Positions 13,140 through 62,300 are shown, counted from the first letter of the stretch. The stretch: DNA of 64,000 nt from an uncultured archaeon (GCA_964587725.1 CAZPLO010000001.1:16327-80326); one strand, 5' to 3'. A program made the numbers and translations. Notes: generated from the sequence alone by a model not told the origin.

Positions 13140-13159
13140 GGTAGAATATTGTTTTACAG

Positions 13160-23668: not shown

Positions 23669-23669
23669 G

Positions 23670-25322: not shown

Positions 25323-25323
25323 C

Positions 25324-30234: not shown

Positions 30235-30268
30235 AGTTTTTATTACTGCACAGTAATGGTTTAGTAGG

Positions 30269-33913: not shown

Positions 33914-33983
33914 AATAAAACCCCCCTTAGAACGTTAGATATTGAATGTTTTATTAAAATAACCGGGATTTAATACATTACCT

Positions 33984-34964
33984 ATGGAACGGACCTACAT
34001 CCTCGCCTCCCGGATTTTCCCATCCAGGGTTAATAGAAGCATCAGCGACCTCCTCAGGTACTGCGGAAGCACCATGACGGCCGAGACCTGGCTGGGGAGG
34101 GCCGCCATAATCAGCATCATAATATTCGTTTTAACGGCGGCGGTGTTTTTGTTCACCGTCCAAAACCCCCTGATGGCCCTGTTCCTGGTATTGGTGGGGC
34201 TCCTGATATTCCACGTGGCAAACTACATGCTCCTGTATTTGAAGGCGGAGAGCAGGGCTAGGGCTGTGGAACGCGTTCTCCCCAATCTCCTGCAGCTGAT
34301 AGCCGCCAACCTCAACTCCGGGATGACGCCTTTCCAGGCTGTGAAGGAGGCGTCTAGGATAGAGTTCGGAATCCTGAAGGAGGAGATAGACACCGCCATC
34401 GCATTGTCGCTGGGGACCATGCCTTTCCCGGACGCGCTGATGTACATGACGACGAAGGTGAAATCCGAAACCTTCAGGAACGTGATGGAGTTGTTCGTGG
34501 AGGGGATGAGGACGGGGGGGCCCCTGGCCACCCTGCTGAACGACATAGCAGACGACATAATAGAGAACCTGGACCTGCGGCGGGAGATTGTCACGCGGAG
34601 CAAAAGCTACATACTGTTCATATCCTTCATCGTGGTGGTGGGGGCTCCGCTGCTGTCGGCGGTGTCGATACACTTCATCCGCACCATCACCAGCATAACA
34701 AGCACCGTCGCCTTGGACGTGCCGGAGGTGGCTAACGTGGGCGGCATAACATTCGGGCAGCTGAGCCTCACCGAAAGCTTCCTCACCACCGTGTCGGTGG
34801 CCAACATACTGGTGACCGCGTTGATTGCGAGCTGGCTGATTGCCATAATAGCGGAGGGCAGGGACAAGTACATGTTCAAGTACGCCATAATGCTGGTGCC
34901 GTTCTCCATGGTCATGTTCTACTCCCTCGACTACCTGATAGCGCTGGTATTGACCGTAGAATGA
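33984..34964 (+). CDS. Single-domain T2SSF-family platform protein (TadC-like)
   Basis: N-terminal TM helices, then one T2SSF-type cytoplasmic domain (...NLNSGMTPFQAVKEA...), then C-terminal TM helices; 326 aa. Confidence 0.7.
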   Translation: MERTYILASRIFPSRVNRSISDLLRYCGSTMTAETWLGRAAIISIIIFVLTAAVFLFTVQNPLMALFLVLVGLLIFHVANYMLLYLKAESRARAVERVLPNLLQLIAANLNSGMTPFQAVKEASRIEFGILKEEIDTAIALSLGTMPFPDALMYMTTKVKSETFRNVMELFVEGMRTGGPLATLLNDIADDIIENLDLRREIVTRSKSYILFISFIVVVGAPLLSAVSIHFIRTITSITSTVALDVPEVANVGGITFGQLSLTESFLTTVSVANILVTALIASWLIAIIAEGRDKYMFKYAIMLVPFSMVMFYSLDYLIALVLTVE

Positions 34965-37638: not shown

Positions 37639-38337
37639 ATGGTTGAGCGCGTTCAAACGGGTATACCGGGGCTCGACGAGCTCCTCGGCGGCGGATTCAT
37701 CAGGAGACGGCATGTTGTCATATGCGGCGGCCCGGGAACCGGAAAGACCACGCTGGCATACGAGTTCCTGTACCGGGGGGCCGAACAATACGGTGAGAAA
37801 GGGTTGTTCGTGTCATTGGAGCAGAGCCCCGAACGGGTGGTGGATGGGGCGAAGGCGTTGTTCAGCAGCTGGGACTGGGACAGACACCTGGACTCTAACA
37901 TAGTGGTGACGAGGGTGCAGATAGACGACTTCACCCACCTCCAGGACATCATAGGAAACTACGTCAAGGAACACGGTGTGAAGCGGGTGGCGTTGGACAG
38001 CCTAACCCTGCTGCGGCTGTATTTCAGGGGCGAAGACGCGTACCGGAACAATCTGTATGAGCTGCTCACGTTCCTCGGAGACCTCGACTGCACCACCCTG
38101 CTGACGCTGGAGAAGGCGATGAACCGACGGTCCGACGCCCAATACGACATGGAGGAGTTCGTAGCAGACGGCGTAATCAACATGTATCTGGTTCCGAAGG
38201 AGCGGGACCGTCTGAGGGTATTGGAGATTGTGAAGATGAGGGACACCGACCACAGCACCCGCCTTAGCCCGTTCAAGATAACACCGGACGGACTGATGAT
38301 TTCCCCTGACGCGCAGATGTTCGGAGACATCGAGTGA
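37639..38337 (+). CDS. KaiC-like single-domain RecA-superfamily ATPase
   Basis: GIPGLDELLGGGFIRRRHVVICGGPGTGKTTLAYEFLYRG; 232 aa; related to 33206..33913. Confidence 0.8.
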   Translation: MVERVQTGIPGLDELLGGGFIRRRHVVICGGPGTGKTTLAYEFLYRGAEQYGEKGLFVSLEQSPERVVDGAKALFSSWDWDRHLDSNIVVTRVQIDDFTHLQDIIGNYVKEHGVKRVALDSLTLLRLYFRGEDAYRNNLYELLTFLGDLDCTTLLTLEKAMNRRSDAQYDMEEFVADGVINMYLVPKERDRLRVLEIVKMRDTDHSTRLSPFKITPDGLMISPDAQMFGDIE

Positions 38338-45646: not shown

Positions 45647-45880
45647 ATGGACGTCAAAGTTTATTCTACCCCCACCTGCCCCTGGTGCAAACGCACCAAG
45701 GAGTTTCTGGACAAAAACGGCGTGGAATACGAGGACGTTAACGTGTCCGGCAACCAGGAGGCCGCGCAGGAGATGGTTAAGAAGAGCAAGCAGATGGGCG
45801 TCCCGGTGGTGGACGTGGACGGCACCATCGTGGTGGGATACGACGAGGACGCGCTCAGGAAGGCGCTCAACCTTAACTGA
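45647..45880 (+). CDS. Glutaredoxin/NrdH-like small redoxin
   Basis: 77 aa, VKVYSTPTCPWCKRTKEFL (CPWC active site). Confidence 0.8.
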   Translation: MDVKVYSTPTCPWCKRTKEFLDKNGVEYEDVNVSGNQEAAQEMVKKSKQMGVPVVDVDGTIVVGYDEDALRKALNLN

Positions 45881-46460: not shown

Positions 46461-46886
46461 TTGACTTCTAAGGGACAGGCTTCGCTGGAGTACATGGTTA
46501 TGCTGGCCATTTCGCTGGCGGTGTTCGCCGCCGTACTGTACGTCACCAGCATCCTCATCAGCACGAGCAGCGTTCAGGTGGGGGTGGACTCTGCCAACCG
46601 GGCTGTTGAGAAGCTCAAGTCTGCGGCGGACTTCATATACGTCCACGGCCACCCGTCGAGGACGGAGGTGAACGTCTACATACCCCCGAACATAGAAAAC
46701 ATGGACATCGTCGGCCGAAACAACAGTCTGAGGGCTAGGGTGGCGGTGGGGGAGACGTACACGGACATATACGGCGTGACGAAGGGGAAGATTTACGGCG
46801 ATTTGTCCTACGTGGACAAGGAAGGATACTACGTTTTGAGGGTGGAGTCGACTTCCCCCCACACCATAAACATCAGCGTGTTATGA
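46461..46886 (+). CDS. Type IV pilin, class III signal peptide (canonical DUF361 KG|QASLEY)
   Basis: (M)TSKG|QASLEYMVMLAISLAVFAAVLYV. The non-ATG start is taken from the track. An AT-rich promoter region lies upstream. Confidence 0.8.
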   Translation: MTSKGQASLEYMVMLAISLAVFAAVLYVTSILISTSSVQVGVDSANRAVEKLKSAADFIYVHGHPSRTEVNVYIPPNIENMDIVGRNNSLRARVAVGETYTDIYGVTKGKIYGDLSYVDKEGYYVLRVESTSPHTINISVL

Positions 46887-47834
46887 ATGCTCATGGACCG
46901 CAGAGCACAAGCGAGTATAGAGTTCATGGTGGTGGTGGGCGTAGTGCTGATGGTGTTCATCATACTCGGGTACGTCGTCTACAGGAATTTCGTGAAAAGC
47001 AATGACCTGAAGATACACATAGACGGCACCCGGGTGGCCAACCACGTGGCCGACAGCATCAACACAGTCAACGTCCTCGGCGACGGCTACAGCACCACCT
47101 CCATGGTCCCTGGCACACTCTACGGAGGCCGCCCGTACACCGTCAACTTCTACGAGAACGAGTCCGCAGTGTATTTGATGGGGAGCGGGTTCTCAACAGG
47201 CAGCGAACTCACCTTCAGCAGCCCGTTGTATACGAGCCAGATAGAATGCCTGCTCCCCGGTTGCGCCTCGGGATGCAACCAGACCGGCGGGGAACAGTGC
47301 CTGCAGGTCAACGACTCCATGACTGTGAAGCTGACGGGGTGGGGTGGAAGTGTGTACTTGAGCCCGAAGTTCAACGTGGAACAGCAGAGCTTGAGGGGGG
47401 ATGTAGTGTCTTATACCTCATACCAGGACCCCGACCCCTTCGCGGCCGAAGGCTTCGTATTGGGCGAGGAAGTGAACTGGAACGTGATGTATGTACATGA
47501 GAACGTCGACGACGGCTCGTTGAGCCTGGTGTTCAGCCTTAACCTGTCGGGGGAGGGGTTTAGGGCCGACGTCGAGGAGGTCTTGGGGGAGCGGGTGGAG
47601 TTCGGGTCGAACGATGACTTGGACGAATTCAACATGGACGTCGTGCCAGGAGCCGACGAGGGCCGGTGGAGTTCCGGCGGAGGGGACGTCGACGGAGGCT
47701 ACGTGAAATACGCCGGCGGATTCAGGGTGTGCGTGCAGCCGGAGACCATGCCGTCCGTGGAGTGGAGGTTCCTCAGCTCCGACGGAAACCACCTGACATT
47801 ATACGATGAGAGAGTATGCGTAACGTATCCGTGA
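46887..47834 (+). CDS. Pilin-like protein, class III signal peptide (315 aa)
   Basis: MLMDRRA|QASIEFMVVVGVVLMVFIILGYV (QASIEF motif); the start abuts the previous stop (TGAATG). Confidence 0.6.
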   Translation: MLMDRRAQASIEFMVVVGVVLMVFIILGYVVYRNFVKSNDLKIHIDGTRVANHVADSINTVNVLGDGYSTTSMVPGTLYGGRPYTVNFYENESAVYLMGSGFSTGSELTFSSPLYTSQIECLLPGCASGCNQTGGEQCLQVNDSMTVKLTGWGGSVYLSPKFNVEQQSLRGDVVSYTSYQDPDPFAAEGFVLGEEVNWNVMYVHENVDDGSLSLVFSLNLSGEGFRADVEEVLGERVEFGSNDDLDEFNMDVVPGADEGRWSSGGGDVDGGYVKYAGGFRVCVQPETMPSVEWRFLSSDGNHLTLYDERVCVTYP

Positions 47835-47836: not shown

Positions 47837-50086
47837 ATGAAGAAGGGGCAGATTTTCACGTGGGACATGATATTCGGGATTACGGTATTCCTGGTCGCCC
47901 TGGTGTTGGTGGTTTACCTGTGGGAGGCATCCTACCGTGAGCTCCGTCATGCGGAGGAAGCCTATGGGATGAACTGGCTTGCGGAGACGGTGTCGGAGCA
48001 GCTGGTGCGCACCGGCGGAGAGCCTCATTACTGGATTCCTGAGCAGGTGGTGGCATACGGATTAGCGGAGGTGCGCGGAGGGGAGGTGGCCGTGGATCCC
48101 CATGATCTGCAGATCAAGGTTTCGAGGAAGCCTGTGGAGAGCAGGGTGTTGGACGCGGACAAGATACTGTACCTGATAAAAGCCTTCCAAGAAGACTACG
48201 AGGGAGTCAGGAACAGGATGCTCGGTTCCTCCAGATACGATCTGTATGTGGAGCTGTCGTGCGTCAACCGCAGCGACCTCACCTGCCTGCAGGGATTGCA
48301 CCTGGACAACGTCAACGAACCCGTGCACTGCACAAACACCAGGGTAAGCGTCAGCGGATTCAGGACAGACAGTTACGTGTGGCTGGAGGCCGAGGACGTG
48401 TGGGGCAGCCCATCATCATCATTCTGCCTGAAGGGATGCAGCGGCGGAAACACGAGCAGGATAGATGATGTGGAACCTGTGACAGTGGGCATAGACCCGG
48501 GAAAGTACCAGATATGGGTTCGGGCCTACGAAGACAACAGCGACGCCAAGATAGTGTTGGATGGCGTGGAACACGGGATATATGGCCTCAGGCGACCGGG
48601 CAGCCTGGGGTGGAGCCACGTTGGCGAACAGGATCTCGACAGCGAAGTGGTGATAGGGTTCGCCGACACGGAGGATGGAAACCGGGTGGATGCTGTACTG
48701 CTTTCAACCGAAGGATCCTACACCCCCGGCGTAGAAAACATAGAATTTTACGGCAACCCCAACACCTTCGAATCGTGTATAATTGGAAATCCGAGTGAGG
48801 GAAGCGATACTGTGAGCTCCGCCAAAACCGCGGTGGTTGGCGTGCCCCTGAGCAGGACGGAGTTGCTGGGGGGCGTGCACAGGATACTCGACAAAGTGGT
48901 TGAGGTGAAGGTGGTTGTGTGGGGCGGGGAGGCTCTGCCGCCGCGTGAGATATCCGGGGAGTCGGCGACAACAACGACTACTACCCTGCCTCCAACGGAC
49001 ATAATATGCAGCGGCGGTGAACTGACGGAATACTGCGTAGCCAACTACCCGCCGGCCATAGACGTGACCGGCGTTAAGTTCTCCGGGGGGAACACGCTGT
49101 CGTGCGGAGACAGCAAGGACTTTACGGTGTCGTGGAGGGGCACCCACCTCAGGGACCCCAACTATTTCGCGTTCTACTTAGACAACAGGAGCTTCTTCCT
49201 CGGCGCCTGCAGCAGCTTCGTGGACGAAGGCGACCTCGGCTACCACAATTACAACATGAGCTGCGCCGTGGACGTGCCGGAAGGGCTGGATGTGGTGGAC
49301 GGGCAGCACGAGTTTATCGTAACCGCAGAAGACGAGGACGGATACTGCATGCCCGGTGACGAACGTGCCGACGACCAGGAATCCTACGCCGTCAACATCC
49401 AGAACTGTCTCGGCTACGCCAACCTGCCCTGTTCGCAGACGTACGGCAAGAAGAGTGGGTGCGTGGAGAACGTGAACAGCGTGGACACAGTATACAGGAT
49501 GGAGTCGAACGGTCTGGAGTGCACCAACTACGGCAACACCGCGGACACCTACTGGGGCGGCGGCCACGGAGACAGTGGGACAGTGTACTGGACCTATCTC
49601 CTGGAGGTCGACGGCTCATACGTGTGCCTCGCCACCTGCGAGTCCACGGGGGCGACAGCACACTATAACATGAGCTGCACGTTGAACCTGGGATCCGACT
49701 GCGACGGAAATCCATTAAACATTCCGGACGGACAGTACCGTCTGCTGGTTACCGCGGAAACCCACCCCGAAAACTACTGCAGAGACCCAGAGGCCGCGGA
49801 TGCTGTGGGCTCCGGCACGGTGTCTTGGAGCTGCGAAACCGGAGGGAGTAACGTCTTACTCACGTATTATATAGCCGACGCGTCCGGCGTCGAAGAGGCG
49901 GAACTATACTCTGACGTGTCAGGCAGCTGGGGTTACACCGCGGTTGAACCAGCCCCCACCCATAATGCGGGGGAGAATGCGGTGTTGTTGGTGAACGTGC
50001 CCCCAGGCACCTACCAGTGGAACATCAAACTACAGCCCCTGAGAGGCTTCTTATATGGGGAAAACCAAGTTTTTACTGTGGAGTAA
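47837..50086 (+). CDS. Large pilin-like adhesin (about 749 aa), class III signal peptide, Cys-rich
   Basis: Internal ATG of track ORF 47816..50086. MKKG|QIFTWDMIFGITVFLVALVLVV; many paired Cys, NxS/T sequons, Thr linker (ATTTTTTLPPT). Confidence 0.6.
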   Translation: MKKGQIFTWDMIFGITVFLVALVLVVYLWEASYRELRHAEEAYGMNWLAETVSEQLVRTGGEPHYWIPEQVVAYGLAEVRGGEVAVDPHDLQIKVSRKPVESRVLDADKILYLIKAFQEDYEGVRNRMLGSSRYDLYVELSCVNRSDLTCLQGLHLDNVNEPVHCTNTRVSVSGFRTDSYVWLEAEDVWGSPSSSFCLKGCSGGNTSRIDDVEPVTVGIDPGKYQIWVRAYEDNSDAKIVLDGVEHGIYGLRRPGSLGWSHVGEQDLDSEVVIGFADTEDGNRVDAVLLSTEGSYTPGVENIEFYGNPNTFESCIIGNPSEGSDTVSSAKTAVVGVPLSRTELLGGVHRILDKVVEVKVVVWGGEALPPREISGESATTTTTTLPPTDIICSGGELTEYCVANYPPAIDVTGVKFSGGNTLSCGDSKDFTVSWRGTHLRDPNYFAFYLDNRSFFLGACSSFVDEGDLGYHNYNMSCAVDVPEGLDVVDGQHEFIVTAEDEDGYCMPGDERADDQESYAVNIQNCLGYANLPCSQTYGKKSGCVENVNSVDTVYRMESNGLECTNYGNTADTYWGGGHGDSGTVYWTYLLEVDGSYVCLATCESTGATAHYNMSCTLNLGSDCDGNPLNIPDGQYRLLVTAETHPENYCRDPEAADAVGSGTVSWSCETGGSNVLLTYYIADASGVEEAELYSDVSGSWGYTAVEPAPTHNAGENAVLLVNVPPGTYQWNIKLQPLRGFLYGENQVFTVE

Positions 50087-50087
50087 C

Positions 50088-52196
50088 ATGAGGTGGCAGC
50101 ATATTATGGTGGTGGCGGTTCTTGCTTCCGCGGCCGCGGGGCAGCTGTCGATGCAGGTGGACGAGAGCAGCCAGACCTCCGGCGGCGGAGAATCCGTGGA
50201 ATACGGTTTAACGGTCACCAACGATGGAGCCGCCACACTGTGGGTGGACTTCCAGGCAATCGGTTTAAGCGAGGGTATGTCGGCTGCGATAGTCTACCGG
50301 GGGGGTTTCCTGGCTCCAGGAAACTCAAAAAATGCGATGGTGAAGGTGACGTCGGCCCCGTATGTTCCTGTCGGCTCATATCCCCTGCAGTTGAAGGCGA
50401 TACCGTCTGAGGGAATCCCTGTTGAAGTATCCGTAACATACAACGTGAACTCCACCCCCGTCACCACCACAACACTGTACCCGCCCACAACAACATCTTC
50501 AACCACTACGACACAGCCGACGACGTCGACCACAGTACCAACCAACGAAACCAGCACATCAACCAGCACACCAAGTTCGTCAACAAGTAGCACCTCATCC
50601 AGCACCAGCACGGCACCGTCAACCGCCTCAACCAGCTCATCATCAACCACCACGCCAAGTTCAACAAGCACGGCACCTTCTACCACAACCAGCACCGAAA
50701 CACCCACTACAACCACACTACCTCCAACCACCACGACCATAGTCAACATCACCACCACAACCTCCACAACCCAGCCGACCACCACCACCATACCCTCCTC
50801 CCTCGTGGCGGAGGGGACGGTGTACAGCTGCCCCGGCTCCTGCTACGACACCTACTGGTTCGACTCATCCAGCTTGTGCGGCGGCGCGCAGATAGGGGAC
50901 TGGGTTGGCTTCTACACCGGCGTGGAAACAGGGAACTGCTATCAGATTGCAGACACGTACTGCGACTACTGCTGGGACATATACCCGTGCGTGGATTTAG
51001 GGGTTCCGGTGAGGATAGCCACGAACGACCAGTTCAAGGTCTGGGGGCTGCAGGCCGACTGCCTTAACACGGTTCCGTCAACCACGACAACCACCCTGGC
51101 GCCGACCACAACGACACTGGCCCCCACAACCACTACAGTCACCAACGCCACAACCACCACACAGGCTCCGACCACCACGACCACGCCTTCTGGGCAGATA
51201 CTCCAGGGCACAGTATACAGCTGCTGGGAAGACTGCGCCAACGCAGACTACATAGACTCAACAGCACTCTGCGGGCCGGCGCAAACCGGAGACTACATAG
51301 GCTTCGCCACCGGACCCTCCGCGGGAACATGCGTTGAAATAATAGACCTGTACTGCGACGGATGCTGGAACATCGATTTCAACTGCGTCGGATTCCCCAC
51401 CCCGTTGACCATACAACCAGGAGACACCTTCGAAATATACGCCACACAGACGGAATGCGCAACCAACATGCCATCGACCACAACCACAACATCCACGACA
51501 ACCACCCTGGCGCCGACCACAACCATACCACCAACCACAACCACACGACCAACAGGCATGATACTCCAAGGCACAGTATACAGCTGCCCCGAACCATGCG
51601 ACAACACAGACTACATAGACTCAACAGCACTCTGCGGGCCGGCGCAAACCGGAGACTACATAGGCTTCGCCACCGGACCCTCCGCGGGAACATGCGTTGA
51701 AATAATAGACCTGTACTGCGACGGATGCTGGAACATCGATTTCAACTGCGTCGGATTCCCCACCCCGTTGACCATACAACCAGGAGACACCTTCGAAATA
51801 TACGCCACACAGACGGAATGCGCAACCAACATGCCATCGACCACAACCACAACATCCACGACAACCACCCTGGCGCCGACCACAACCATACCACCAACCA
51901 CAACCACACGACCAACAGGCATGATACTCCAAGGCACAGTATACAGCTGCTGGGAAGACTGCGCCAACGCAGACTACATAGACAGCCCCAGCCTATGTGG
52001 AGGCACCCAGGTAGGAGATTGGGTCGGCTTCTACAACGGCACCGAGGCAGGGAACTGCTACGAAGTAATAGACATATACTGTGACTACTGCTGGGGGGAC
52101 TACCCGTGCATAGGGACCGGCTTGGGAATGCAGCTGACGGAGGGAGACCTCTTCAGGGTGTGGGGGGCGCAGACGGAGTGTGTAAACTCGTTCTGA
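50088..52196 (+). CDS. Secreted modular protein: N-terminal domain + Thr/Ser-rich linkers + four roughly 100-aa Cys-rich (8 Cys) domains (A-B-B-A' arrangement)
   Basis: Internal ATG of the track ORF. Signal peptide MRWQHIMVVAVLASAAAGQ. Four repeats of GTVYSC..C....(Y)(I)DS..LCG..Q.GD..GF..G...G.C.E.ID.YCD.CW.....C........GD.F......TEC, separated by poly-Thr linkers. Repeats 2 and 3 are nearly identical. Confidence 0.65.
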   Translation: MRWQHIMVVAVLASAAAGQLSMQVDESSQTSGGGESVEYGLTVTNDGAATLWVDFQAIGLSEGMSAAIVYRGGFLAPGNSKNAMVKVTSAPYVPVGSYPLQLKAIPSEGIPVEVSVTYNVNSTPVTTTTLYPPTTTSSTTTTQPTTSTTVPTNETSTSTSTPSSSTSSTSSSTSTAPSTASTSSSSTTTPSSTSTAPSTTTSTETPTTTTLPPTTTTIVNITTTTSTTQPTTTTIPSSLVAEGTVYSCPGSCYDTYWFDSSSLCGGAQIGDWVGFYTGVETGNCYQIADTYCDYCWDIYPCVDLGVPVRIATNDQFKVWGLQADCLNTVPSTTTTTLAPTTTTLAPTTTTVTNATTTTQAPTTTTTPSGQILQGTVYSCWEDCANADYIDSTALCGPAQTGDYIGFATGPSAGTCVEIIDLYCDGCWNIDFNCVGFPTPLTIQPGDTFEIYATQTECATNMPSTTTTTSTTTTLAPTTTIPPTTTTRPTGMILQGTVYSCPEPCDNTDYIDSTALCGPAQTGDYIGFATGPSAGTCVEIIDLYCDGCWNIDFNCVGFPTPLTIQPGDTFEIYATQTECATNMPSTTTTTSTTTTLAPTTTIPPTTTTRPTGMILQGTVYSCWEDCANADYIDSPSLCGGTQVGDWVGFYNGTEAGNCYEVIDIYCDYCWGDYPCIGTGLGMQLTEGDLFRVWGAQTECVNSF
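51244..51961 (+). repeat. Perfect tandem duplication, 2 x 363 bp (about 355 bp of identity per copy), inside CDS 50088..52196
   Basis: A long identical DNA string begins around 51244 and again around 51607 (gactacatagactcaacagcactctgcgggccggcgcaaaccggagactacatagg...). The ORF track shows identical antisense ORFs offset by exactly 363 nt (51258..51569 and 51621..51932). Confidence 0.85.
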
Positions 52197-53750: not shown

Positions 53751-54437
53751 ATGCCCGAGTACAGCGTGTTGATTCCCGTATACAACGAGGAGGCGATACT
53801 GGAGGAGAAGCTGAAGCAGCTGGCAGACTACCTTGACGTCTTCAACCCCGACTACGAGGTCATCGTGTGCAGCAACGGCAGCAACGACCGTACGGACGAG
53901 GTAGGAGAGTCGTTGGGGATGCCGAAGGTCAGGTTCGCCGCCATCCCCGACAGGGGTGTGGGCAGGGCCTTCAAAAAAATGGTTCAGGAAGCCGGAAGCG
54001 AAAAAATTATTTCGATGGACGTGGATTTGAGCTCCGACCTCGAGTTCATACCAGAGTGCGTGCGCATGCTAGACGAATACGACGTCGTAGTCGGCTCAAA
54101 ACGGAAGGGGGAGCAGGAGCGGCAGTGGCACCGGACCTTCATAAGCGGCGTGTTCATTTGGATGGTTAAGGTGCTGCTCGGCCTAACATACGGGGACTAC
54201 AGCATCGGCACCAAGGGTTGGCGGCGGAGCAGCATAATAGGGTACGTTGATGGAATAGACCACGGCAGCTCCTACGTGGTGGAACTCATATACTATGTGG
54301 AACGCTCAGGCGGGAAGGTCATCGAGGTGCCCGTGTACTGTTCGGACACCCGGGGCAGCAGATTCAATCTCGTGCACGAGGTGTTCTACAGACTGAAGAA
54401 CCTTTTAAGCTTCTGGCTGCGGCCGAAGACCGTGTAG
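53751..54437 (+). CDS. GT2-family glycosyltransferase (dolichyl-phosphate hexose synthase-like)
   Basis: YSVLIPVYNEE N-terminus and a DxD-like motif (MDVDLSSD); 228 aa; an AT-rich promoter is upstream. The 3' end overlaps the convergent gene by about 50 nt, so one of the two ends is uncertain. Confidence 0.8.
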   Translation: MPEYSVLIPVYNEEAILEEKLKQLADYLDVFNPDYEVIVCSNGSNDRTDEVGESLGMPKVRFAAIPDRGVGRAFKKMVQEAGSEKIISMDVDLSSDLEFIPECVRMLDEYDVVVGSKRKGEQERQWHRTFISGVFIWMVKVLLGLTYGDYSIGTKGWRRSSIIGYVDGIDHGSSYVVELIYYVERSGGKVIEVPVYCSDTRGSRFNLVHEVFYRLKNLLSFWLRPKTV

Positions 54438-56593
54438 AGTATTACGGCGGCCGCGGAGACGGTGAGGAGGATGCCCAGCCAATCCACCGCGGTCTTACTG
54501 TATACCAGCCGCACCCGCTCCTCCGCCGGATAAACCAGCATGAAAGACGGCGACACCAGATAGACCCTGTCCGCGCCCTCCGCCCGCCAGCTCGGATAAT
54601 AGGAGACGCTTATTATGTGGGGTTCGCCCACGCAGTCGGTGGTGAACTCTATCGACTCCGCCTCCACGATTTCCCGGACGCTGCACTCCCTGCCGACGGG
54701 AGCTCCTTCCAGGGTTTCGAGGTCGCCCATCACCGCATCCTCGTAGACGGAGGTGAAGTGCTCACGGTCCACCGAATCCACGGAGTGTTTGAAGGCCACG
54801 GGCGTGTCCAACAGTTCAACGCGCTTGAACCATTGGTAGCTGATGTTCTTCCAGTCCGACGTCTCAAACAATACCGGACGGTTCTCTGGAACAGTCACGT
54901 ACTGCCCGGTGTTGGTGGTGAGCTCCCACACCTCAAACGGGTCCTCCGAGTAGGCGAGCCGCCACTCCGGATGCTCTCTTAAAGCTTTTTTGGCTTTCTC
55001 GCTCCGCGCAACCAGATACTGTGTGTTGAACAGCTTCAGGTGCTCGGTGCCGTTTCCAAGATTGAATGAGGTGCACGGATATATCGCCCAGAAGGGGCAG
55101 CTCTGCTGTTCACTCACCTCCGACTGTATGTAGAATGTGAAGGGGGACGTGTGTATGGACTGCATGTACAGGCCCTCCAGTATGCTGCGGCCCGCGAACA
55201 AAGGTATGCTCTCGAATGCACGCACGGTGCCGGCTGCGTTGTGCTGGTCGCTGTGCTCGAACTTCGCCCTCGGGCTGGCTACGCCGCCCCCCATGAAGTC
55301 GTTCACCGCCTTATACTGCGGCCACAGACTCTTCCTTTCGAACCCTTCGTAGTTCCACCGCACCCAGTGGGGGGTGAATCCGCTGTACTTCCACTCCAGC
55401 AGCTGCGGAACAACCTGGTTGGTGTTGAACTTCACCCCGTCGTCGGAGACCGACACAACAGCCTTGCTGCCGTTCACCCAGTAAACTGTGAGCAGTACTA
55501 CAATCAACGGGACAATCCATTTGGCCTTCAGCGGGCGGATGAGCTGCTGCAGCCCGTATGCGCCGGCGAGCATCAGCGTAACATAAACGAACGGGAGGAA
55601 CCGTATGTCCACCACACCCAGCTTCGAGGCGAGGAAGAAGAACACCAGACCCGACAATATGGAGTAGCCGAGATACCAGACCCTCTTATCCCGGCTGTAC
55701 AGTGAGGTGAAGAAGCCGAACCCCGCCAAAACCACGAACGGCCACAGAATCGGAGGCATCACGTCCTCCGTAATCCGCCAGGGTATGTCGTATGCTGTGG
55801 TGTATTTTATGCGGGCCAGCAGGGGTATAATCCAGAAGCCAGTAAGCATGAACGCGAGCGGATAGGATTTCGCCATGTACAGTATGCGAGATTTCACGTC
55901 GTCCATGTTTTTCCTCAGCAGCAGATAGGTAGTTGACAGCACAGCCCACAACACCGTGTACACGTGGGTCAACGCCACGAACGCCAGCAACACTGAGTTG
56001 TGGAGCACGTATTTCCTGTCTTCCATGCCGCGGTACATGAGGCCGAGGAACAGTATCGTCAGCGACAGGCTTATGCTGTAGCTGAATTCGCCGGCGAGGG
56101 TGCTGGGGATGTTGCCCCCCCACATGCTGTGGGACTCCATGAACAGGAACGGGAGAGAGAATGCGGCCGCCGCAGAGGGTACGGGGAACTTGAACCGCAT
56201 CAGCTTCATGCACGCGTAAGCCGTCAAAGGCAGGGTGAACACCCCCAGCACGGTCACCAGCTTGAACGCTATCTGCAGGGGCATCACATAGCTCATCAGC
56301 GCCATCAACACGAACGGGACCGTGAAGTAGAACTGGAACAACGGCATGCCGCCGTACCATCCCGGCAGCCACCCCATAACATGGCCTTTAGGCAGCAGTT
56401 CGTCGCGTAGGAACTCCGCAGGATAGTAATGTGATGCGGTGTCTCCGCCGGCGGTTATGGTCTCGCTCAACATCACGTCTGGGGTGAATACACTCAGGAG
56501 GAAGCCGTAGACCGCCAGCAACACCACCGCATCAACCACTGACTCCGCGGCGACCTCAACCCTGCGCCCCATGAACTCGAATGTGCGGCTCAT
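54386..56593 (-). CDS. Large polytopic membrane protein (about 735 aa), GT-C-like/YfhO-like candidate
   Basis: Start placed at the internal Met (MSRTFEF...), which gives a 4-nt overlap with the upstream CARDB-like gene. About 13 TM helices, a first loop with a D..SHYY element, a soluble C-terminal domain and a final TM. Confidence 0.5.
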   Translation of the reverse strand: MSRTFEFMGRRVEVAAESVVDAVVLLAVYGFLLSVFTPDVMLSETITAGGDTASHYYPAEFLRDELLPKGHVMGWLPGWYGGMPLFQFYFTVPFVLMALMSYVMPLQIAFKLVTVLGVFTLPLTAYACMKLMRFKFPVPSAAAAFSLPFLFMESHSMWGGNIPSTLAGEFSYSISLSLTILFLGLMYRGMEDRKYVLHNSVLLAFVALTHVYTVLWAVLSTTYLLLRKNMDDVKSRILYMAKSYPLAFMLTGFWIIPLLARIKYTTAYDIPWRITEDVMPPILWPFVVLAGFGFFTSLYSRDKRVWYLGYSILSGLVFFFLASKLGVVDIRFLPFVYVTLMLAGAYGLQQLIRPLKAKWIVPLIVVLLTVYWVNGSKAVVSVSDDGVKFNTNQVVPQLLEWKYSGFTPHWVRWNYEGFERKSLWPQYKAVNDFMGGGVASPRAKFEHSDQHNAAGTVRAFESIPLFAGRSILEGLYMQSIHTSPFTFYIQSEVSEQQSCPFWAIYPCTSFNLGNGTEHLKLFNTQYLVARSEKAKKALREHPEWRLAYSEDPFEVWELTTNTGQYVTVPENRPVLFETSDWKNISYQWFKRVELLDTPVAFKHSVDSVDREHFTSVYEDAVMGDLETLEGAPVGRECSVREIVEAESIEFTTDCVGEPHIISVSYYPSWRAEGADRVYLVSPSFMLVYPAEERVRLVYSKTAVDWLGILLTVSAAAVILYTVFGRSQKLKRFFSL

Positions 56594-57402
56594 CTCCGCA
56601 CCTGATAGTAAAGTAGTACGACAACCAGCGCAGCCAGTATTAATAGCGGCGTCCAAGGGGGGAGGCCGCCCTCACCCGCCTCCACAATGGACACCATGCC
56701 ATTGGCGGCCGCGCTGTAGTGGAAGTCCTCCTCAGCGTAGTCCATGGTCGCGAAAACAACGTAGCTGGACCCAGGCAGCGCCCCGAACGATTTCACCGGA
56801 AAAGACAGCCGGCTTATGCCCCGGGCTGGGACTTCAATGTCTCTGACGTAGTAGTTGGCTGCGAGTTCATCCGGGAGGTGCAGGCGGACGGTGACGTCAT
56901 GGGGTTTTTCGTCTAGGTTGCTGACCTCCAGGCGTAGGTCGCCTCCTTGTTCAGGGGTTATCTTGAGCTCCTCCACGGCTCCGCGAAGGCGGAACGGGGT
57001 GGGGTTCATGTAGCGTATGAACAGGGGGGAGATGGTGGAGAAGGGGTATGCGTTGGCGTCAGTGTAATGCGTCTTCAACACCACCGCATAGGTTCCCGGC
57101 TTCACGGAGTCGTTGACGGACACGGTGTAGGAGTGCGTCTGGGGTGCATTGGGGTTGAGCACGCCCAGGTGCGCCGGTTCAGCGGTGAAGCCTTCCGGAA
57201 GCACCAAATCCACTTGGACGTCGTATGCCGGCTCGTCGCCGGTGTTCAACACGGTCACGTTCAATGGGAAAGAGTCTTCCGTTACCACCTCCGTCTGCGC
57301 CACAGACACCGTCATCTGTATGTAGGATGCCGAACAAGACCCCGACAGAAGGCATAAGACTAAAAACGCGTTTAAAAGTCCGTCTTTCATGAAATCAGCC
57401 AC
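56590..57402 (-). CDS. Secreted CARDB/DUF11-like Ig-fold protein with C-terminal TM anchor
   Basis: Signal peptide (LLNAFLVLCLLSGSCSA). Two beta-sandwich-like modules (NVTVLNTGDEPAYDVQVDL..., LRLEVSNLDEKPHDVTVRL...). C-terminal TM followed by RR. Confidence 0.55.
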   Translation of the reverse strand: MADFMKDGLLNAFLVLCLLSGSCSASYIQMTVSVAQTEVVTEDSFPLNVTVLNTGDEPAYDVQVDLVLPEGFTAEPAHLGVLNPNAPQTHSYTVSVNDSVKPGTYAVVLKTHYTDANAYPFSTISPLFIRYMNPTPFRLRGAVEELKITPEQGGDLRLEVSNLDEKPHDVTVRLHLPDELAANYYVRDIEVPARGISRLSFPVKSFGALPGSSYVVFATMDYAEEDFHYSAAANGMVSIVEAGEGGLPPWTPLLILAALVVVLLYYQVRR

Positions 57403-57451: not shown

Positions 57452-59176
57452 ATGAATTTCTTAAGACGGCGTGGGCGCGCGGGGCAGGCGGGTTTGGAGA
57501 GCATAATACTCTACGGGGGCGTCATAGTCGTCTTGGCCGTGGGCTTGGTGGTGGTGTGGCAGAGCGGCATCCTCCGCCCCTTCCTGGGCCTCAAAGGCTA
57601 CGTGGGATTCAGCCAGGTGGTGCCTGAGGACTGGTCTGTGGGCGTGGACAACGTAGCCTACATGAGTTTGAAGAACACCGGCAGCGCGCCGGTCAACATA
57701 CACGCCCTCGGCGTCGACGTACGTGTTGGGAGGGTACAGTGTGAGCCCTCTCCTCTGGAGGCGGAGGCCGTGCAGCCTGGAGGCGGAGCCATACTGACGT
57801 TCATATGCCCCGGCCCGCCGCCGATAAACGATGAATACGAGGTCGGAGACTACTACGAAGCGGACGTCACCATAAACTACACCAACCTTGTTTCAAACCG
57901 GTTCCACCAGAGCGTGGGCAAACTATACGGTCTCATGGAGGTCGCGGACCTTCCCATCCCAACCACCGTCACCACCATGACGGGAACGACGCTGCCGTGC
58001 GGATGCTTTGAATGCGAATGCAACAAGTCGGGGGAGATAGATGAGGAAAACTGTGAGAAAATACGGTACGGACAGAGCTGCGACTACTGCCCGGAGAGAC
58101 TGGACCTGGACGGCAAGCGGAAGTGCTGGTACAGGGGCAAATGCGGGGACAACTGCAACATCAACAAGGACTGCGTGGACCGCAACGCCAACTACGGACA
58201 CCTTAACGTCTGCAGGGACTGCGTGGACGGAAAGTGCAGGGAGAGCTCGCACCCCTGGTATCCATCCTGCGGCCAGTGCGATTCGGAGGACGCGGGCACA
58301 CTCTACAGCCCTAAATGCGACGGCGAAGAATGCCCGTACTGCCAGAGGGAGTGGGTGCAGTTGAGCGAGCTCCCCGGCGAAAGCGAAGGATACTATAGTT
58401 ACTCCTGCACCACAGGAGACGACTGCGGGGACTCCTGCCTGAACTTCGGAGACGACGTGTACGAGGAGTGCCAGGTACGGTGCGTGCACTGCAGCGAAAC
58501 CCCTGGCGGAGAGCCCACCTGCAGCCAGGGAAGCTGCGGGGAACGCTGCAGCGTAACAGACGACCCCACCTGCAACAGAGGCTGCCTGTGGTGCAACCTC
58601 ACAACGTACAAGTGCGAATTGGGAGACTGCGGCAGACCCTGCGTGATAGGGGACGACGCCTGCCAGCTCGGCTGTGATACTTGCTGGGACGGACGGTGCG
58701 TCGACACCGAAGTAGGCGTCACCATAGACGCGCACAACGGCACCGGCGGAGACGTGGTGGCTGAGAACACCACCATCCACCTGGACGTCCGCGGAGAATG
58801 CGACGACGGAATACACCGGATTCTGGTCAGCAACAGCATACCTCTGCCCCGTGGATTCGACGGCATCACCAGCTGCAGGGACGTGGCCAACGACCGAAAC
58901 AGGCTCGGCGCGATAGAGGATCCGTACGGCGACCCCCAGACTGCGGAGTGGATGAACACGTGGAACATAACCTGGAACGACACATATAGCTGCGGCGGCG
59001 TGAGCCCCTGCGCCAACGTGTGGGAGACCAACGAGTCCGAGATAAACGTTTACTGTTATTTCGCATTGGCTCAGAAGCAGACGCTGTTCGGCGGAGGCAG
59101 GTGGAGCATGATAGCGTCCGACTACATCCAGGTAGGGGACATCGACGTCTACCTTGCTTTCCCGCCTCCCTTTTAG
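57452..59176 (+). CDS. Pilin-like protein with class III signal peptide and hyper-Cys-rich extracellular region (574 aa, more than 60 Cys)
   Basis: MNFLRRRGRAG|QAGLESIILYGGVIVVLAVGLVVV is a QxxxE prepilin-like start followed by a hydrophobic helix. Residues about 185-400 are packed with CxxC, CGxC and DCxDGKC-type motifs. Confidence 0.6.
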   Translation: MNFLRRRGRAGQAGLESIILYGGVIVVLAVGLVVVWQSGILRPFLGLKGYVGFSQVVPEDWSVGVDNVAYMSLKNTGSAPVNIHALGVDVRVGRVQCEPSPLEAEAVQPGGGAILTFICPGPPPINDEYEVGDYYEADVTINYTNLVSNRFHQSVGKLYGLMEVADLPIPTTVTTMTGTTLPCGCFECECNKSGEIDEENCEKIRYGQSCDYCPERLDLDGKRKCWYRGKCGDNCNINKDCVDRNANYGHLNVCRDCVDGKCRESSHPWYPSCGQCDSEDAGTLYSPKCDGEECPYCQREWVQLSELPGESEGYYSYSCTTGDDCGDSCLNFGDDVYEECQVRCVHCSETPGGEPTCSQGSCGERCSVTDDPTCNRGCLWCNLTTYKCELGDCGRPCVIGDDACQLGCDTCWDGRCVDTEVGVTIDAHNGTGGDVVAENTTIHLDVRGECDDGIHRILVSNSIPLPRGFDGITSCRDVANDRNRLGAIEDPYGDPQTAEWMNTWNITWNDTYSCGGVSPCANVWETNESEINVYCYFALAQKQTLFGGGRWSMIASDYIQVGDIDVYLAFPPPF

Positions 59177-59183
59177 GTTTAAG

Positions 59184-62100
59184 ATGAGCAGAGGCTACGT
59201 GGTCACCTGGGACGCGCTGATTGCCCTCAGCTTCGTCCTCTTCCTGATGGTGGGTTTCATAGGCGTACAGTACTTCGGCCGCGTCGCCCGCGGAGGCAGC
59301 GCCTTCGAACGCGCTCACGCGGTGGCCGAGAACGCCATGGACACCATGAACCGCCAGGGTGTGCTGGAGGAGATAGCCCAGGAGTGGGCTCTCGGAAACA
59401 ACGCGTCCGCAGGAAACCTAACCAAAGAATACTTCGACAACGTAATACCCCCGCAGATGGGATACCGCCTTGAGGCCGTCACCCCCGGGGGTGTGAAGGC
59501 CATATACGGCAGCGGAGACGACCGGCCCCCGGAAGAAGACGCCACGGACCAGACCAAAGCCTCCAGACACCTCTCCGGATACAAGGAGGACGCCCCCAGG
59601 TCGGGGTGGACGGGCCGCGCGTGGCTCATAGAAAACCAGAGCTGGTCCGTAAACCTCGTCTCGAACAGGAGCTCTTTTTTCCCGGGCTGGGAGAGCGTGT
59701 CCCTGAAATACAGTCCTGTTCCCCTGAGAAACAACACATTCTATCTCTTGGTGCCGGGTGGAAGCAGCCTTAAACACGCCTCCTTCAACGTCAGCTGGGA
59801 GGGGGGGTCGGTCCCCTCCTACACCACCTTAACCTCTTCATCCAGTTCGTCGTCCTCCAGCTCAACCTCCTCTTCCTCCACCACGGAGCCGAGGGACTGC
59901 CACGACTGTCCGCCAGGAGAAGGCTGCGGCACACCCGGATGGCATGAGATGTCCGGGGACGACTACAACTACCACAACTTCACCATCGGTTCTGGGGACA
60001 GCTGCAACCTCAACCTTAACATATACCGGGAACCGGCCAACCACATGCTGGGGTTCAACCTCTATGACATATACTTCAACCGGATGGACTACTGCGAGCC
60101 CTGCCCGCCGGATGACCCTAACTGCCAGTGCATGTGCAGCCACCCCGAGAGCAGGCCGGACCTGAGGCCCTGGGACTGCGAGACCATAGACATTTTCTAC
60201 GAAAGCTACGAATCCTGTCCAGTGCCGGACCTGCCTCCCGGAACCTACGAGATTATGGTGGACTGCTGGAACCCTGAGGGGATTTCAGTCGACTTCTGCC
60301 CCGGCAGATACTACGTGTACGTAACCTCCGACGGCGGCGACAACTGCCCCAACGACCCGCCCCCGTCCTTCTCCACATCAACTTCCACCGCGGCGACCAC
60401 CGTGGAGGAACCGGGCATGATAGCGCACTGGAAGTTCGACGAAAGCACCGGGCAGATTGCCCTAGACTCCATAGGCGACCACGACGGCACCCTGTACGGG
60501 CCCGAGCGAACGGATGATGCGGTGGACGGACGGGCTTTGTATTTCACCGGCACCGGCGACCTAGTCAGCGTACCCGACGATTCCGCTCTGGATTTGGCGG
60601 AATTCACCCTTGTGGCGTGGATTAAAATGGACAGCAGCGCCCAGCTAGACAATTACCCCGCCATAGTGGGTAAGGGAACGGGGGGTAACAGTAACAGAAA
60701 CTACCGGATGGGGGTGATACAGGCCTCAGGGACAGCTGAGGGAGGCTTCCACAACACCGCCGGGGGATGGATTTCCGTTGAGGGAGATTACGTGGGAGAC
60801 AACACCTGGCACCATGTGGTGTTAACCTATGACCGGTCCCATCTGAGGATATACGTGGACGGTGAAGAACCAAACTCCTTACCGGCGACCGGCACGCCCG
60901 CAACAAACAACGAACCCCTGGAGATAGGCAATGTTGAAGGTGATGATTTAAAGGGTATCGTAGACGACGTGAGGATGTACAATTACGCCCTTGACGCGGG
61001 GGAGGTTCAGTCCATCTACGATGAAACAAGGCCGGACAACAAGGGAGACGCCTGCACCGAGGACAGCGACTGCATGTCGGGGAACTGCGCGCCAGACTAC
61101 GACGGGGATGGAAGCTGGTGTGCTCCGGCGGGCAACTGCGCCCACAGCCCCACCAGCTCATGCGATGAAACCTGCTACGGATACCGACAGGGAGACTACG
61201 GCGCAGACTGCATAGACGACACCCACCTGCACCAGTGCGACCCGGACGGAAACGGCGACGGGGTGTGGGGAATCGTTCTCTGCCCGGTATGCAGTCCCGC
61301 GGAGCCGGAACCCAAGGACACCCCCTGCATAGGAAGGTGGATGTGCCAGGACACCGGCGGCCATGCCTCCTGCGACGCAGGCTGCACCAGAGACGGGGCG
61401 GCATGCGACTTCTGCGGAAGCTACGCCAGGGACACGCCAGGAAGCGACACTTGGTACGACGGAGAATGCCTGGCCGGGGTGTGCGAGACCGTTAAGATAG
61501 AGTGCCAGCGTTGTATGTCCTGCAGGAACCTGTCACAGTACGAGTGTTTGTGCACGGCAACCGGAGGCGTCAACAACTACGTCTACGGCGAGGAGGATAA
61601 CGTGGGACCCAACACCTGCTACGGAACACAATACTGTGACGGCGCGGGGGGCTGCCTGTCGCCGGTAACATGCTCCAACTGGCCCATCAACATAATATAT
61701 GAGTCAGATATGTGCTCCGACTCGTGGGACTGCGACGACGACGGAAGCGAAGACGGCAACCACACGAGGTTAAGCTGGAGAAACCATGGTTCCGGAGACT
61801 ACTACATTGGGGGGTGGCACGAGTATGATGACCCTGTGGAGGAATGGACTCACACGAACCGGGACGACGATGACGTCTCCATAGGGGTGGAGCAGGTAGA
61901 TTTTGACGGAAGCCCCTACGTACACCACGGCTCCTCATTCGACTTCACAGCCTACGTGGGGGAGGGAGTCGACACGTTAAGCTTTGGCTTCTCTGCCATG
62001 CCAAGAGGCAACTGCTATGAAACAGTAGAACTCTACGCCTCCGGAACCCTGCTGGGATCCTGCGACATAGGGGGCGTGGACTGCAACAACGACAACCTGC

Positions 62101-62300
62101 TACCCCCCGTAGGTGATTCGGTGTGGCATTACTGCACCATAGATGTGAGTGGAATCCAGGGCGGGGGACCGGTGACGCCGGGTGCGGTCAACACATTCAA
62201 CGTCGAATTCCCGCTGCTCCCCGGTGTTTCTGGACCGATGGGTTGCAGCGCGTACCCGTGCACCATGTTCATCGACGCGATAGGTATTACATGCGGCTGA
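59184..62300 (+). CDS. Giant pilin-like adhesin (about 1038 aa) with LamG/ConA-like lectin domain and Cys-rich modules
   Basis: Internal ATG of track ORF 59154..62300. MSRG|YVVTWDALIALSFVLFLMVGF N-terminus. Central LamG-like signature (...GRALYFTGTGDLVSVPDDSALDLAEFTLVAWIKMDS...WHHVVLTYDRSHLRIYVDGEE...DDVRMYNYAL). Ser linker SSSSSSSSSSTSSSS. Many Cys. Confidence 0.6.
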   Translation: MSRGYVVTWDALIALSFVLFLMVGFIGVQYFGRVARGGSAFERAHAVAENAMDTMNRQGVLEEIAQEWALGNNASAGNLTKEYFDNVIPPQMGYRLEAVTPGGVKAIYGSGDDRPPEEDATDQTKASRHLSGYKEDAPRSGWTGRAWLIENQSWSVNLVSNRSSFFPGWESVSLKYSPVPLRNNTFYLLVPGGSSLKHASFNVSWEGGSVPSYTTLTSSSSSSSSSSTSSSSTTEPRDCHDCPPGEGCGTPGWHEMSGDDYNYHNFTIGSGDSCNLNLNIYREPANHMLGFNLYDIYFNRMDYCEPCPPDDPNCQCMCSHPESRPDLRPWDCETIDIFYESYESCPVPDLPPGTYEIMVDCWNPEGISVDFCPGRYYVYVTSDGGDNCPNDPPPSFSTSTSTAATTVEEPGMIAHWKFDESTGQIALDSIGDHDGTLYGPERTDDAVDGRALYFTGTGDLVSVPDDSALDLAEFTLVAWIKMDSSAQLDNYPAIVGKGTGGNSNRNYRMGVIQASGTAEGGFHNTAGGWISVEGDYVGDNTWHHVVLTYDRSHLRIYVDGEEPNSLPATGTPATNNEPLEIGNVEGDDLKGIVDDVRMYNYALDAGEVQSIYDETRPDNKGDACTEDSDCMSGNCAPDYDGDGSWCAPAGNCAHSPTSSCDETCYGYRQGDYGADCIDDTHLHQCDPDGNGDGVWGIVLCPVCSPAEPEPKDTPCIGRWMCQDTGGHASCDAGCTRDGAACDFCGSYARDTPGSDTWYDGECLAGVCETVKIECQRCMSCRNLSQYECLCTATGGVNNYVYGEEDNVGPNTCYGTQYCDGAGGCLSPVTCSNWPINIIYESDMCSDSWDCDDDGSEDGNHTRLSWRNHGSGDYYIGGWHEYDDPVEEWTHTNRDDDDVSIGVEQVDFDGSPYVHHGSSFDFTAYVGEGVDTLSFGFSAMPRGNCYETVELYASGTLLGSCDIGGVDCNNDNLLPPVGDSVWHYCTIDVSGIQGGGPVTPGAVNTFNVEFPLLPGVSGPMGCSAYPCTMFIDAIGITCG

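Follow-up and report, generated by a model that had tools for sequence, protein, structure and literature searches.

Can an archaeon carry large adhesive modules directly on its type IV pilins, as some bacteria do? The question is raised by two adjacent genes, here called A and B, which occupy positions 57452 to 62300 of a 64,000-nucleotide stretch of DNA from an uncultured archaeon (GCA_964587725.1, CAZPLO010000001.1:16327-80326; hereafter the window). The original prediction for this locus was of two giant pilin-like proteins with hyper-Cys-rich regions and, in B, a LamG-like lectin domain, which would serve as a tip adhesin or as an S-layer-piercing fibre. Both open reading frames (ORFs) are indeed present; 'giant', however, is an overstatement for proteins of 574 and 1038 aa, although a protein of 1804 aa with as many as 209 Cys does occur among the paralogs at other loci. 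We consider it probable, though by no means certain, that the two proteins form a conserved pair of modular type IV pilins of an Altiarchaeota-like archaeon, and that they act as adhesins. At the level of sequence, the pilin homology of A, the modular architecture, the pairing and synteny of the two genes and the presence of type IV pilus (T4P) genes in the window are firm.

The pilin module of gene A

We analysed the N-terminus of A, which is pilin-like: in RRRGRAG/QAGLESIILYGGVIVVLAV the basic leader is followed directly by a hydrophobic helix. A short basic leader ending in G or A (RRRGRAG/QAGLESIILYGGVIVVLAVGLVVVW) and a helix of at least about 20 residues, as in class III signals, are kept in the orthologs. 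The A family is small (18 proteins, 36-46% identity), and all of its named members come from metagenome-assembled genomes (MAGs) of Candidatus Altiarchaeota. In an alignment of 16 members (37-49% identity), Q12 and E16, which lie at +1 and +5 of the predicted cleavage site, are invariant within a [KR]GQxxxEN motif; the same two residues are invariant across 20 sequences that include stand-alone pilins. Only A, of the two proteins, combines the Q+1 of EppA-type substrates with an acidic residue at +5. The AlphaFold2 (AF2) model of A (mean predicted local distance difference test score, pLDDT, 73.6) places a helix at residues 14-38, a β-sandwich at 49-161, a disordered Thr-rich linker at 167-182, the Cys-rich region at 183-418 and a well-predicted second β-sandwich at 421-561. 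The pilin head contains one conserved Cys pair, C97 and C119.

The A-family profile, searched against 1.84 billion representative proteins, gave 417 matches, of which only about 15 were full-length A-type proteins. The majority were stand-alone proteins of 140-180 aa, which cover residues ~7-160 of A end to end (E down to 1e-35), are 27-34% identical to its pilin module and terminate exactly at the start of its linker. These ~155-aa proteins begin with [KR]GQ[ST]A[LM]EYLxTYGWAIL, a textbook archaeal prepilin N-terminus. A profile of 73 of them together with the N-domain of A matched two solved structures in the PDB, 8FK7 (E=2.4e-7) and 8Q30 (E=4e-6), with archaellins as weaker matches; 8FK7 is the type IV pilus subunit of Pyrobaculum calidifontis, and 8Q30 is the Aap pilin (AapB) of S. 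acidocaldarius (PMC10334743, PMC11178815). With a profile of A alone the sole PDB match was again 8FK7, at a non-significant E=0.47, and searches of Pfam and NCBIfam with N-terminal fragments of A and B returned nothing. Because A matches stand-alone pilins end to end, and their profile in turn matches solved pilus subunits, A is, as judged by homology, a complete archaeal pilin (class III signal, G/Q motif, E+5, α1 helix and Ig-like head) with an extension. The prepilin-type N-terminus originally read in A is thus borne out, both by the invariance of Q12 and E16 and by this homology.

Cys-rich modules and gene B

The extension of A is extraordinarily rich in Cys. Thirty-eight of its 45 Cys fall in residues 183-416, where they make up 16.2% of the sequence against a background of 0.92% in the 34 other genes of the window; at the background rate, a stretch of 234 aa would contain 38 or more Cys with a probability of ~7e-35. 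The original count of more than 60 Cys in about 300 aa was therefore too high, but the enrichment itself is far beyond chance. In the 16-sequence alignment, Cys is invariant at about 37 columns, and the family numbers per domain are all even: the pilin head has 2, the Cys-rich region 36 and the C-terminal domain 4, with a total of 42 in most orthologs. The window's A has two extra Cys where the Cys-rich region opens (57998..58021; CGCFECEC versus the family consensus P.CF..EC) and a non-conserved C450 (58799) in the C-terminal domain, hence its odd total.

Four copies of a 6-Cys unit, G.CG..C-x5-10-C-x3(12)-C..C-x4-9-C, can be recognized in A (residues 229-264, 323-359, 360-390 and 391-418). 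A hidden Markov model (HMM) of this unit detected it six times in tandem in an independent paralog (L009; 423 aa, 40 Cys), and gave no match in B, in the giant paralogs described below or in the other paralogs; the Cys-rich modules, therefore, are not all one repeat family, and the 6-Cys unit of A is lineage-specific. The Cys-rich region of A matched no Pfam family at E<=1, no PDB sequence profile and no known fold (pLDDT there is 53-86), and that of B matched no Pfam family and no PDB sequence, its structural model being unusable for a fold search. Consequently, the resemblance to EGF, TNFR or toxin-knot folds suggested originally is unsupported; nor did any known intracellular metal-binding family, the opposite possibility raised at the time, turn up among the matches. 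The C-terminal domain of A is the highest-confidence section of its model. Fragments of it turn up as separate profile matches (P0065, P0066 and P0072), and its fold matches are generic Ig-like, PKD and CARDB domains.

The ATG of B at 59184 lies 7 nt past the stop codon of A. It is likely to be the start of B, because orthologs begin with MRKGY, MGKGY or MKKGY; an alternative TTG at 59154 would overlap A. The resulting N-terminus, MSRG/YVVTWDALIALSF, is pilin-like, and its pattern of a short leader and a hydrophobic helix (MSRG/YVVTWDALIALSFVLFLMVGFIGV) is kept in orthologs. In the N-domain of B, G4, T8 and D10 are invariant (G/YVVTWD), while Q+1 and E+5 are absent, with T+4 and D+6 instead. 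The same G/xxxT.D N-terminus is found in a large pilin-like protein of the same cluster (P3, 47837) and in the pilin-like genes at 28077 and 28589 upstream of an ATPase gene. From this N-terminal pattern, the strict pairing with A and the genomic context, we infer that B, too, is a pilin.

The core of the B family consists of the N-domain, an S/T linker and a Cys-containing domain, at which short orthologs of 386-413 aa end. Long forms continue with a Cys-rich region and a C-terminal domain and, optionally, carry LamG. Across loci, B-type proteins range from 386 aa to >1145 aa. The LamG assignment in the window's B is secure (PF13385, 95.2 bits versus a cutoff of 27.6, E=5.6e-27, profile positions 2-151 of 151; PDB LamG-like domain 4qvs, E=1.8e-10); the domain is also present in the B of a related locus (L002) and is absent from the orthologs P0020 and P0021. 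Many proteins that share this LamG domain also carry DUF2341 (PF10102), which itself has no match in A or B. Apart from LamG-related families, the Pfam scan of B returned only a non-significant Y_Y_Y match (E=0.075), and the only hint for its C-terminal domain was CBM6, also non-significant (E=0.12). The Cys of B are distributed as 14 in residues 239-398, 30 in 624-860 (12.7%) and 7 in the C-terminal domain. The opening motif of the Cys-rich region (residues 620-657) recurs in two of the pilin-fused giants (L015 and L017). Thus, the pilin-like start of B, its poly-Ser run (217-234), its LamG domain and its Cys-rich C-terminal half all stand as originally proposed. At one locus (L008:11689-13745) two ORFs, one of 106 aa and one of 555 aa, stand in place of a single B-type gene, possibly through a frameshift, pseudogene formation or assembly error.

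The conserved gene cluster, its relatives and the T4P genes

The window (GC 57%) encodes TFE-alpha and subunits of the exosome and the proteasome, and is therefore archaeal. A scan of GTDB species representatives gave 16 loci, all of them labelled Altiarchaeota, Altiarchaeia, 'uncultured archaeon' or 'Euryarchaeota archaeon'. Named homologs and synteny point to an Altiarchaeota-like host. The GC content of the 16 loci is 42%-61%, with no locus coming close to the 32% of Ca. Altiarchaeum (PMC4975002).

We compared the surroundings of A and B among loci. The conserved order is P1, P2, P3, a variable stretch, GT2, PTPS_related (minus strand), CARDB/NPCBM_assoc (minus strand), A, B, TFE and an HD-domain protein, where P1 (141 aa), P2 (~315 aa) and P3 (750-1090 aa across loci) are pilins or pilin-like proteins. 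The A-B pair thus shares a conserved cluster with three other pilin-like genes. At 9 of 9 loci, and on 2 further contigs, the gene immediately downstream of the A-type gene is of B type ([KR]KGY[IV].TWDA.I.L...). P1, likely the major pilin of the A-B cluster, is 73-76% identical between orthologs, and A, B and P3 are only 31-46% identical; the faster divergence of the latter three fits exposed subunits.

The variable stretch holds, in the window, a 713-aa protein (50055..52196, plus strand) located between this pilin set (set II) and the glycosylation genes. Behind a Sec-like signal it has four repeats of ~100 aa that contain Cys (GTVYSC...LCG...GD.(I/V)GF...G.C...D.YCD.CW), two of them nearly identical, and long linkers of Thr, Ser and Pro. 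The protein belongs to no Pfam family, and the occupant of this slot varies among loci. Just upstream of set II (45647..45880, plus strand) is a gene for a 77-aa glutaredoxin-like protein with a CPWC motif, found in the same place at L001. It has no signal peptide and may be irrelevant, but is worth recording beside genes for very Cys-rich exported proteins.

Pilin modules related to that of A are fused to other extensions elsewhere (Table 1). One paralog combines the module with a VWA_2 domain, another with DUF2341, and others carry arrays of a ~55-aa 8-Cys repeat, C..CQ.C.G..F.C...AG.D...CPGAFG.CAG..CNGAGACQYL (read from the sequences), which is unrelated to the 6-Cys unit of A. The giant pilin-fused proteins (L013, L014, L015 and L017), as a group constructed from this 8-Cys repeat, are all found in other Altiarchaeota MAGs. 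Judged by their domain layout, the pilin-module paralogs follow a carrier-plus-effector design.

The window is also rich in T4P genes. There are three T2SSE ATPases (4578-6059, 23670-25322 and 30269-32008) and three T2SSF or TadC/ArlJ-like proteins (21920-23668, 31759-32892 and 33984-34964). The T4P operon I of Table 1, whose span includes a KaiC-like gene on the minus strand, is headed by a small pilin of ~142 aa (27239..27667, plus strand; MSGQ/ASVEWIVIMSVAIL), a P1 paralog that lies within a longer ORF starting at GTG. An archaellum-like ArlJ/ArlI/ArlH trio (21920..26052, minus strand) consists of a T2SSF-like protein of 582 aa, a T2SSE ATPase of 550 aa and a KaiC-like protein of 242 aa, and two more KaiC-like ATPases are encoded at 33206..33913 and 37639..38337. 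A further large ORF (13160..18277, minus strand) encodes a secreted-looking protein of 1705 aa with 4-5 NosD/right-handed β-helix repeats, Big_13, CarboxypepD_reg and 30 Cys; it might be a hamus-like or S-layer-like protein of this high-GC lineage.

Table 1. Features of A, B and their surroundings in the window, and relatives of A fused to other extensions (L012 to L017; positions on their own loci)
Feature	Positions	Strand	Basis or remark
Gene A, predicted modular type IV pilin, 574 aa, 45 Cys	57452..59176	+	ORF, family, conserved synteny
A leader, predicted prepilin cleavage G11/Q12, E+5 (E16), hydrophobic α1 helix	57452..57565	+	residues 1-38; alignments, AF2
A pilin β-sandwich head, GFSQ..P.DW ... 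INYTN ... S.GK.YG..E	57596..57946	+	residues 49-165; alignment to stand-alone pilins, family profile versus PDB, AF2
A Thr-rich linker	57947..57997	+	residues 166-182; pLDDT <50 at 167-182
A Cys-rich region, 38 Cys (36 in most orthologs)	57998..58705	+	residues 183-418; Cys positions, unit HMM
A C-terminal β-sandwich, two helices, four conserved Cys	58706..59173	+	residues 419-574; AF2 pLDDT 82-93
Gene B, pilin-like modular protein, 1038 aa, 51 Cys	59184..62300	+	ORF, directly 3' of A
B leader MSRG, hydrophobic helix, conserved N-domain	59184..59828	+	residues 1-215; alignments
B poly-Ser/Thr linker	59832..59885	+	residues 217-234
B Cys-containing domain, 14 Cys	59898..60377	+	residues 239-398; final domain of short B forms (386-413 aa)
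B LamG/concanavalin-A-like lectin domain, optional insert	60549..61010	+	residues 456-609; PF13385, PDB 4qvs
B Cys-rich region, 30 Cys, opens with C.SGNC..DYDG.GSWCA.AG.C.H	61041..61763	+	residues 620-860
B C-terminal domain, predicted β-strands	61764..62297	+	residues 861-1038; conserved in L002 and P0020
P1 small pilin, 141 aa, MTSKGQ/ASLEYMV...	46461..46886	+	PF04021 25.9 bits versus cutoff 23.7
P2 pilin-like, 315 aa, RRA/QASIEF...	46887..47834	+	PF04021 21.1 bits, sub-threshold; conserved in L001, L002, L005
P3 large pilin-like, 749 aa from MKKG/QIFTWD, 22 Cys	47837..50086	+	
GT2 glycosyltransferase	53751..54437	+	PF00535, conserved synteny
PTPS_related multi-pass membrane protein	54386..56656	-	PF10131, conserved synteny
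CARDB/NPCBM_assoc surface protein, signal peptide and C-terminal membrane anchor, divergent from A	56590..57402	-	adjoins A in all loci
T4P operon I: small pilin 27239, pilin-like 28077, 28589, 28975, T2SSE 30269, TadC-like 31759, 33984	27239..34964	+	candidate assembly machinery
L012, 580 aa	4200-5942		pilin module and VWA_2 (E=4.8e-7)
L017, 1481 aa, 120 Cys	9956-14401		DUF2341 extension
L013, at least 554 aa, 56 Cys	4760-6424		~55-aa 8-Cys repeat arrays
L014, 1293 aa, 166 Cys	1897-5778		~55-aa 8-Cys repeat arrays
L015, 1804 aa, 209 Cys	9974-15388		~55-aa 8-Cys repeat arrays, weak Lcl_C match

Proposed mechanism, alternatives and comparison with known systems

A modular pilin, in the sense of Raynaud et al. 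(2021), consists of a pilin module, a linker and a module foreign to T4P, and this is the layout found here: in A, a Cys-repeat array and an Ig-like domain follow the Thr-rich linker, and in B the foreign module is LamG. We favour modular pilins acting as adhesins on the strength of the A-family profile and the matches to solved subunits, of Q+1/E+5, of the A-B pairing, the conserved pilin cluster and the T4P machinery genes; in addition, the paralog fusions mirror bacterial modular pilins, A, B and P3 diverge faster than P1, and the Cys counts per domain are even.

On this basis, we propose that A and B would be inserted in the membrane and processed by a prepilin peptidase, probably EppA-like because of the Q at +1, and that a T4P machinery with ATPase and TadC, for example the set at 30-35 kb, would then load them. 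The pilin modules may integrate into the filament as a complex, most probably at or near its tip; this placement is argued by analogy from bulky bacterial modular pilins (PMC8179133, PMC9934059). The bulky modules would be displayed on flexible linkers, which are probably glycosylated: the adjacent glycosyltransferases may modify the S/T linkers and the sequons (8 and 9 N-x-S/T sites in A and B, respectively). The displayed modules would act as adhesins, with LamG binding glycans and the Cys-rich arrays, presumably cross-linked by disulfides, serving as rigid spacers or binding surfaces. Presentation of an adhesin by a pilus, the core of the original prediction, is the best-supported mechanism, and fits both bacterial modular pilins (PMC8179133, PMC9934059) and the adhesins predicted for archaeal T4P (PMC4858521). 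The suggestion of an S-layer-piercing fibre, on the other hand, found no support.

Several observations weigh against this interpretation. The Class_IIIsignal family of Pfam (PF04021) matches neither A nor B even at E<=10, and only 1 of 20 sequences with the pilin module; the model is 27 positions long and is insensitive for the pilin family of A. The case for B is affected more: its N-domain has no relative in Pfam, NCBIfam or PDB, known pilins included, its similarity to the N-domain of P3 (hhalign) is confined to the first 32 residues, and its AF2 model, from a 5-sequence alignment, is unusable (pLDDT 36), C-terminal domain included. The pilin module of A and the cluster's own small pilin P1 belong to different pilin families. 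No prepilin peptidase (Peptidase_A24) was found by tblastn within the 64-kb window; one is encoded ~9 kb downstream of the A-B pair at the related locus L002. Finally, location at the tip or in the body of the pilus, the ligand and the disulfide state are all inferred.

It is possible, though on balance unlikely, that the class III signal serves only membrane insertion and processing, and that A and B are not pilus subunits. They might then be part of a surface pseudopilus or a bindosome-like structure, or anchored envelope proteins, perhaps between the two membranes of Altiarchaeum. Non-pilus proteins with class III signals are indeed established, for example in the Sulfolobus bindosome (PMC4858521), and bulky modules fit poorly in the body of a filament (PMC8179133), although flexible linkers would permit their outward display. 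The A-B cluster, moreover, includes neither an ATPase nor a TadC gene (the closest lie >20 kb away), its neighbours being envelope and glycosylation genes and the C-terminally anchored CARDB protein. What speaks for a pilus subunit is the pilin module of A itself, which is full-length and, at 27-34% identity, related to stand-alone pilins of a family that matches solved pilus subunits. Such pilins also coexist with an A-type gene in one genome: in the MAG CAYXON01, besides the A-type gene (L003), two stand-alone members of the pilin family lie in tandem (L018).

A different reading concerns the Cys arrays, which could bind metal or sulfide (Zn, Fe, or Fe-S at CxxC) instead of forming disulfide knots, and could thereby serve metal capture, mineral attachment or extracellular redox reactions in an anoxic, sulfidic habitat. 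There are eight CxxC motifs in A and six in B, and the lineage of their relatives was described from the anoxic subsurface (PMC4975002), where extracellular disulfides are less obviously stable. Since the named relatives are all Altiarchaeota MAGs, the oxidising extracellular milieu proposed originally is doubtful as well. We nevertheless regard metal or sulfide binding as improbable. While no disulfide-rich fold family was matched, no metal-binding family was matched either (Pfam at E<=1). The strictly even, invariant Cys per domain (2/36/4) and a 6-Cys repeat with β-hairpins are typical of disulfide-bonded extracellular repeats, and the conserved Cys of archaeal T4P components have been read as disulfides (PMC4858521).

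More speculative, and something to which we give little credence, is the idea that pilin-fused hyper-Cys arrays (A, the six-unit L009 and the giants of up to 1804 aa and 209 Cys) build an undescribed type of appendage. This could be a pilus with its shaft sheathed or barbed by rigid cross-linked or metal-bridged rods, serving as a hami-like attachment device in Altiarchaeota lineages without a hamus gene, or a type-II-secretion-like pseudopilus across the outer membrane of a double-membraned archaeon. That A and B are ordinary Sec/Tat-secreted or signal-anchored surface proteins with a coincidentally pilin-like N-terminus is very improbable: the RRR in the leader of A and the lack of PF04021 matches would suit it, but the twin arginines are not conserved in orthologs (for which reason a Tat signal in A was rejected) and G-Q...E is invariant, the hydrophobic stretch is of transmembrane length and is part of the mature pilin in homologs, and the significant homology of A to pilins strongly disfavours a Sec/Tat reading for this protein.

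If A and B are modular pilins acting as adhesins, the principle of a carrier pilin with a grafted effector would extend from bacteria to archaea, with LamG, vWA, DUF2341 and a new Cys-repeat family as effectors. The analysis also brings out a large family of archaeal pilins, ~155 aa long, that has no usable database signature, and provides concrete adhesin candidates for uncultured, biofilm-forming subsurface Altiarchaeota. A question for biochemistry follows: by what means, and to what end, does a lineage known from anoxic habitats make extracellular modules in which 16% of the residues are invariant Cys?

We compared A and B with known surface structures. Two were considered and set aside. 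TafC of the haloarchaeal Tat-fimbria (NF052521) gave 73.2 bits with B against a cutoff of 410, and only the LamG-like part (TafC 144-370) aligns; Tafi subunits are Tat-secreted, independently of a class III signal (PMC11821415). The grappling-hook (hamus) protein of Ca. Altiarchaeum, of 1808 aa with S_Layer_N, NosD and FKBP_C domains (PMC4975002), is Sec-dependent (PMC4460559, PMC4975002), and a link to A and B was likewise rejected.

The closest parallel in architecture is with bacterial modular pilins. In Streptococcus sanguinis, PilB is a pilin with vWA, and PilC is a pilin with an Ig-like and a ConA-like lectin domain; CofB and TcpB are further examples (PMC8179133, PMC9934059). As in A and B, an N-terminal pilin carrier is joined through a linker to effector modules that are not pilus-specific, and a conserved pair or set of minor pilins has a predicted role in adhesion. 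The lectin superfamily of B (PF13385/ConA-like) is that of PilC, and PF13385 is among the common modules of bacterial modular pilins (PMC8179133). The vWA of L012 corresponds to that of PilB, and L012 is, by this analogy, a direct archaeal counterpart of S. sanguinis PilB. The differences lie in both halves. The bacterial carriers are of the IPR012902 type with an α-β-roll, whereas the archaeal module of A has Q+1 and an Ig-like head homologous to 8FK7 and 8Q30. The putative effectors of A and B are dominated by lineage-specific hyper-Cys repeats that have no database signature, and are attached through long S/T-rich linkers. The survey of modular pilins relied on the prepilin signature of bacteria, and nowhere contains the word 'archaea' (PMC8179133); with N-termini of the archaeal type (GQ...E, not G/FTLIE), A and B would have fallen outside it.

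Among archaeal systems, the Clade-1 (Epd-type) T4P loci described by Makarova, Koonin and Albers in 2016 encode large predicted adhesins with DUF2341, together with five or more minor pilins (PMC4858521). Like these loci, the window has a system of euryarchaeal type in which pilins carry Q+1 (EppA-type) and two genes are TadC-like; several minor pilins, large proteins resembling adhesins and an S-layer-like protein anchored at its C-terminus are also common to both. DUF2341, moreover, is often found in proteins sharing the LamG of B, and occurs in the paralog L017. Unlike the Epd-type adhesins, A and B are without DUF2341, their adhesin modules are fused directly to pilin modules, and Cys arrays such as theirs are not in PMC4858521. 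The original view that proteins of this kind are unusual for archaea is thus right in one respect and too strong in another: no such modular pilin has been characterised from an archaeon, but the existence of large adhesins associated with archaeal pili had already been predicted (PMC4858521). Lastly, the stand-alone archaeal PilA-type pilins (8FK7 and 8Q30) have in common with residues 1-165 of A an N-terminal helix and an Ig-like sandwich, from which A differs by a further extension of ~400 residues.

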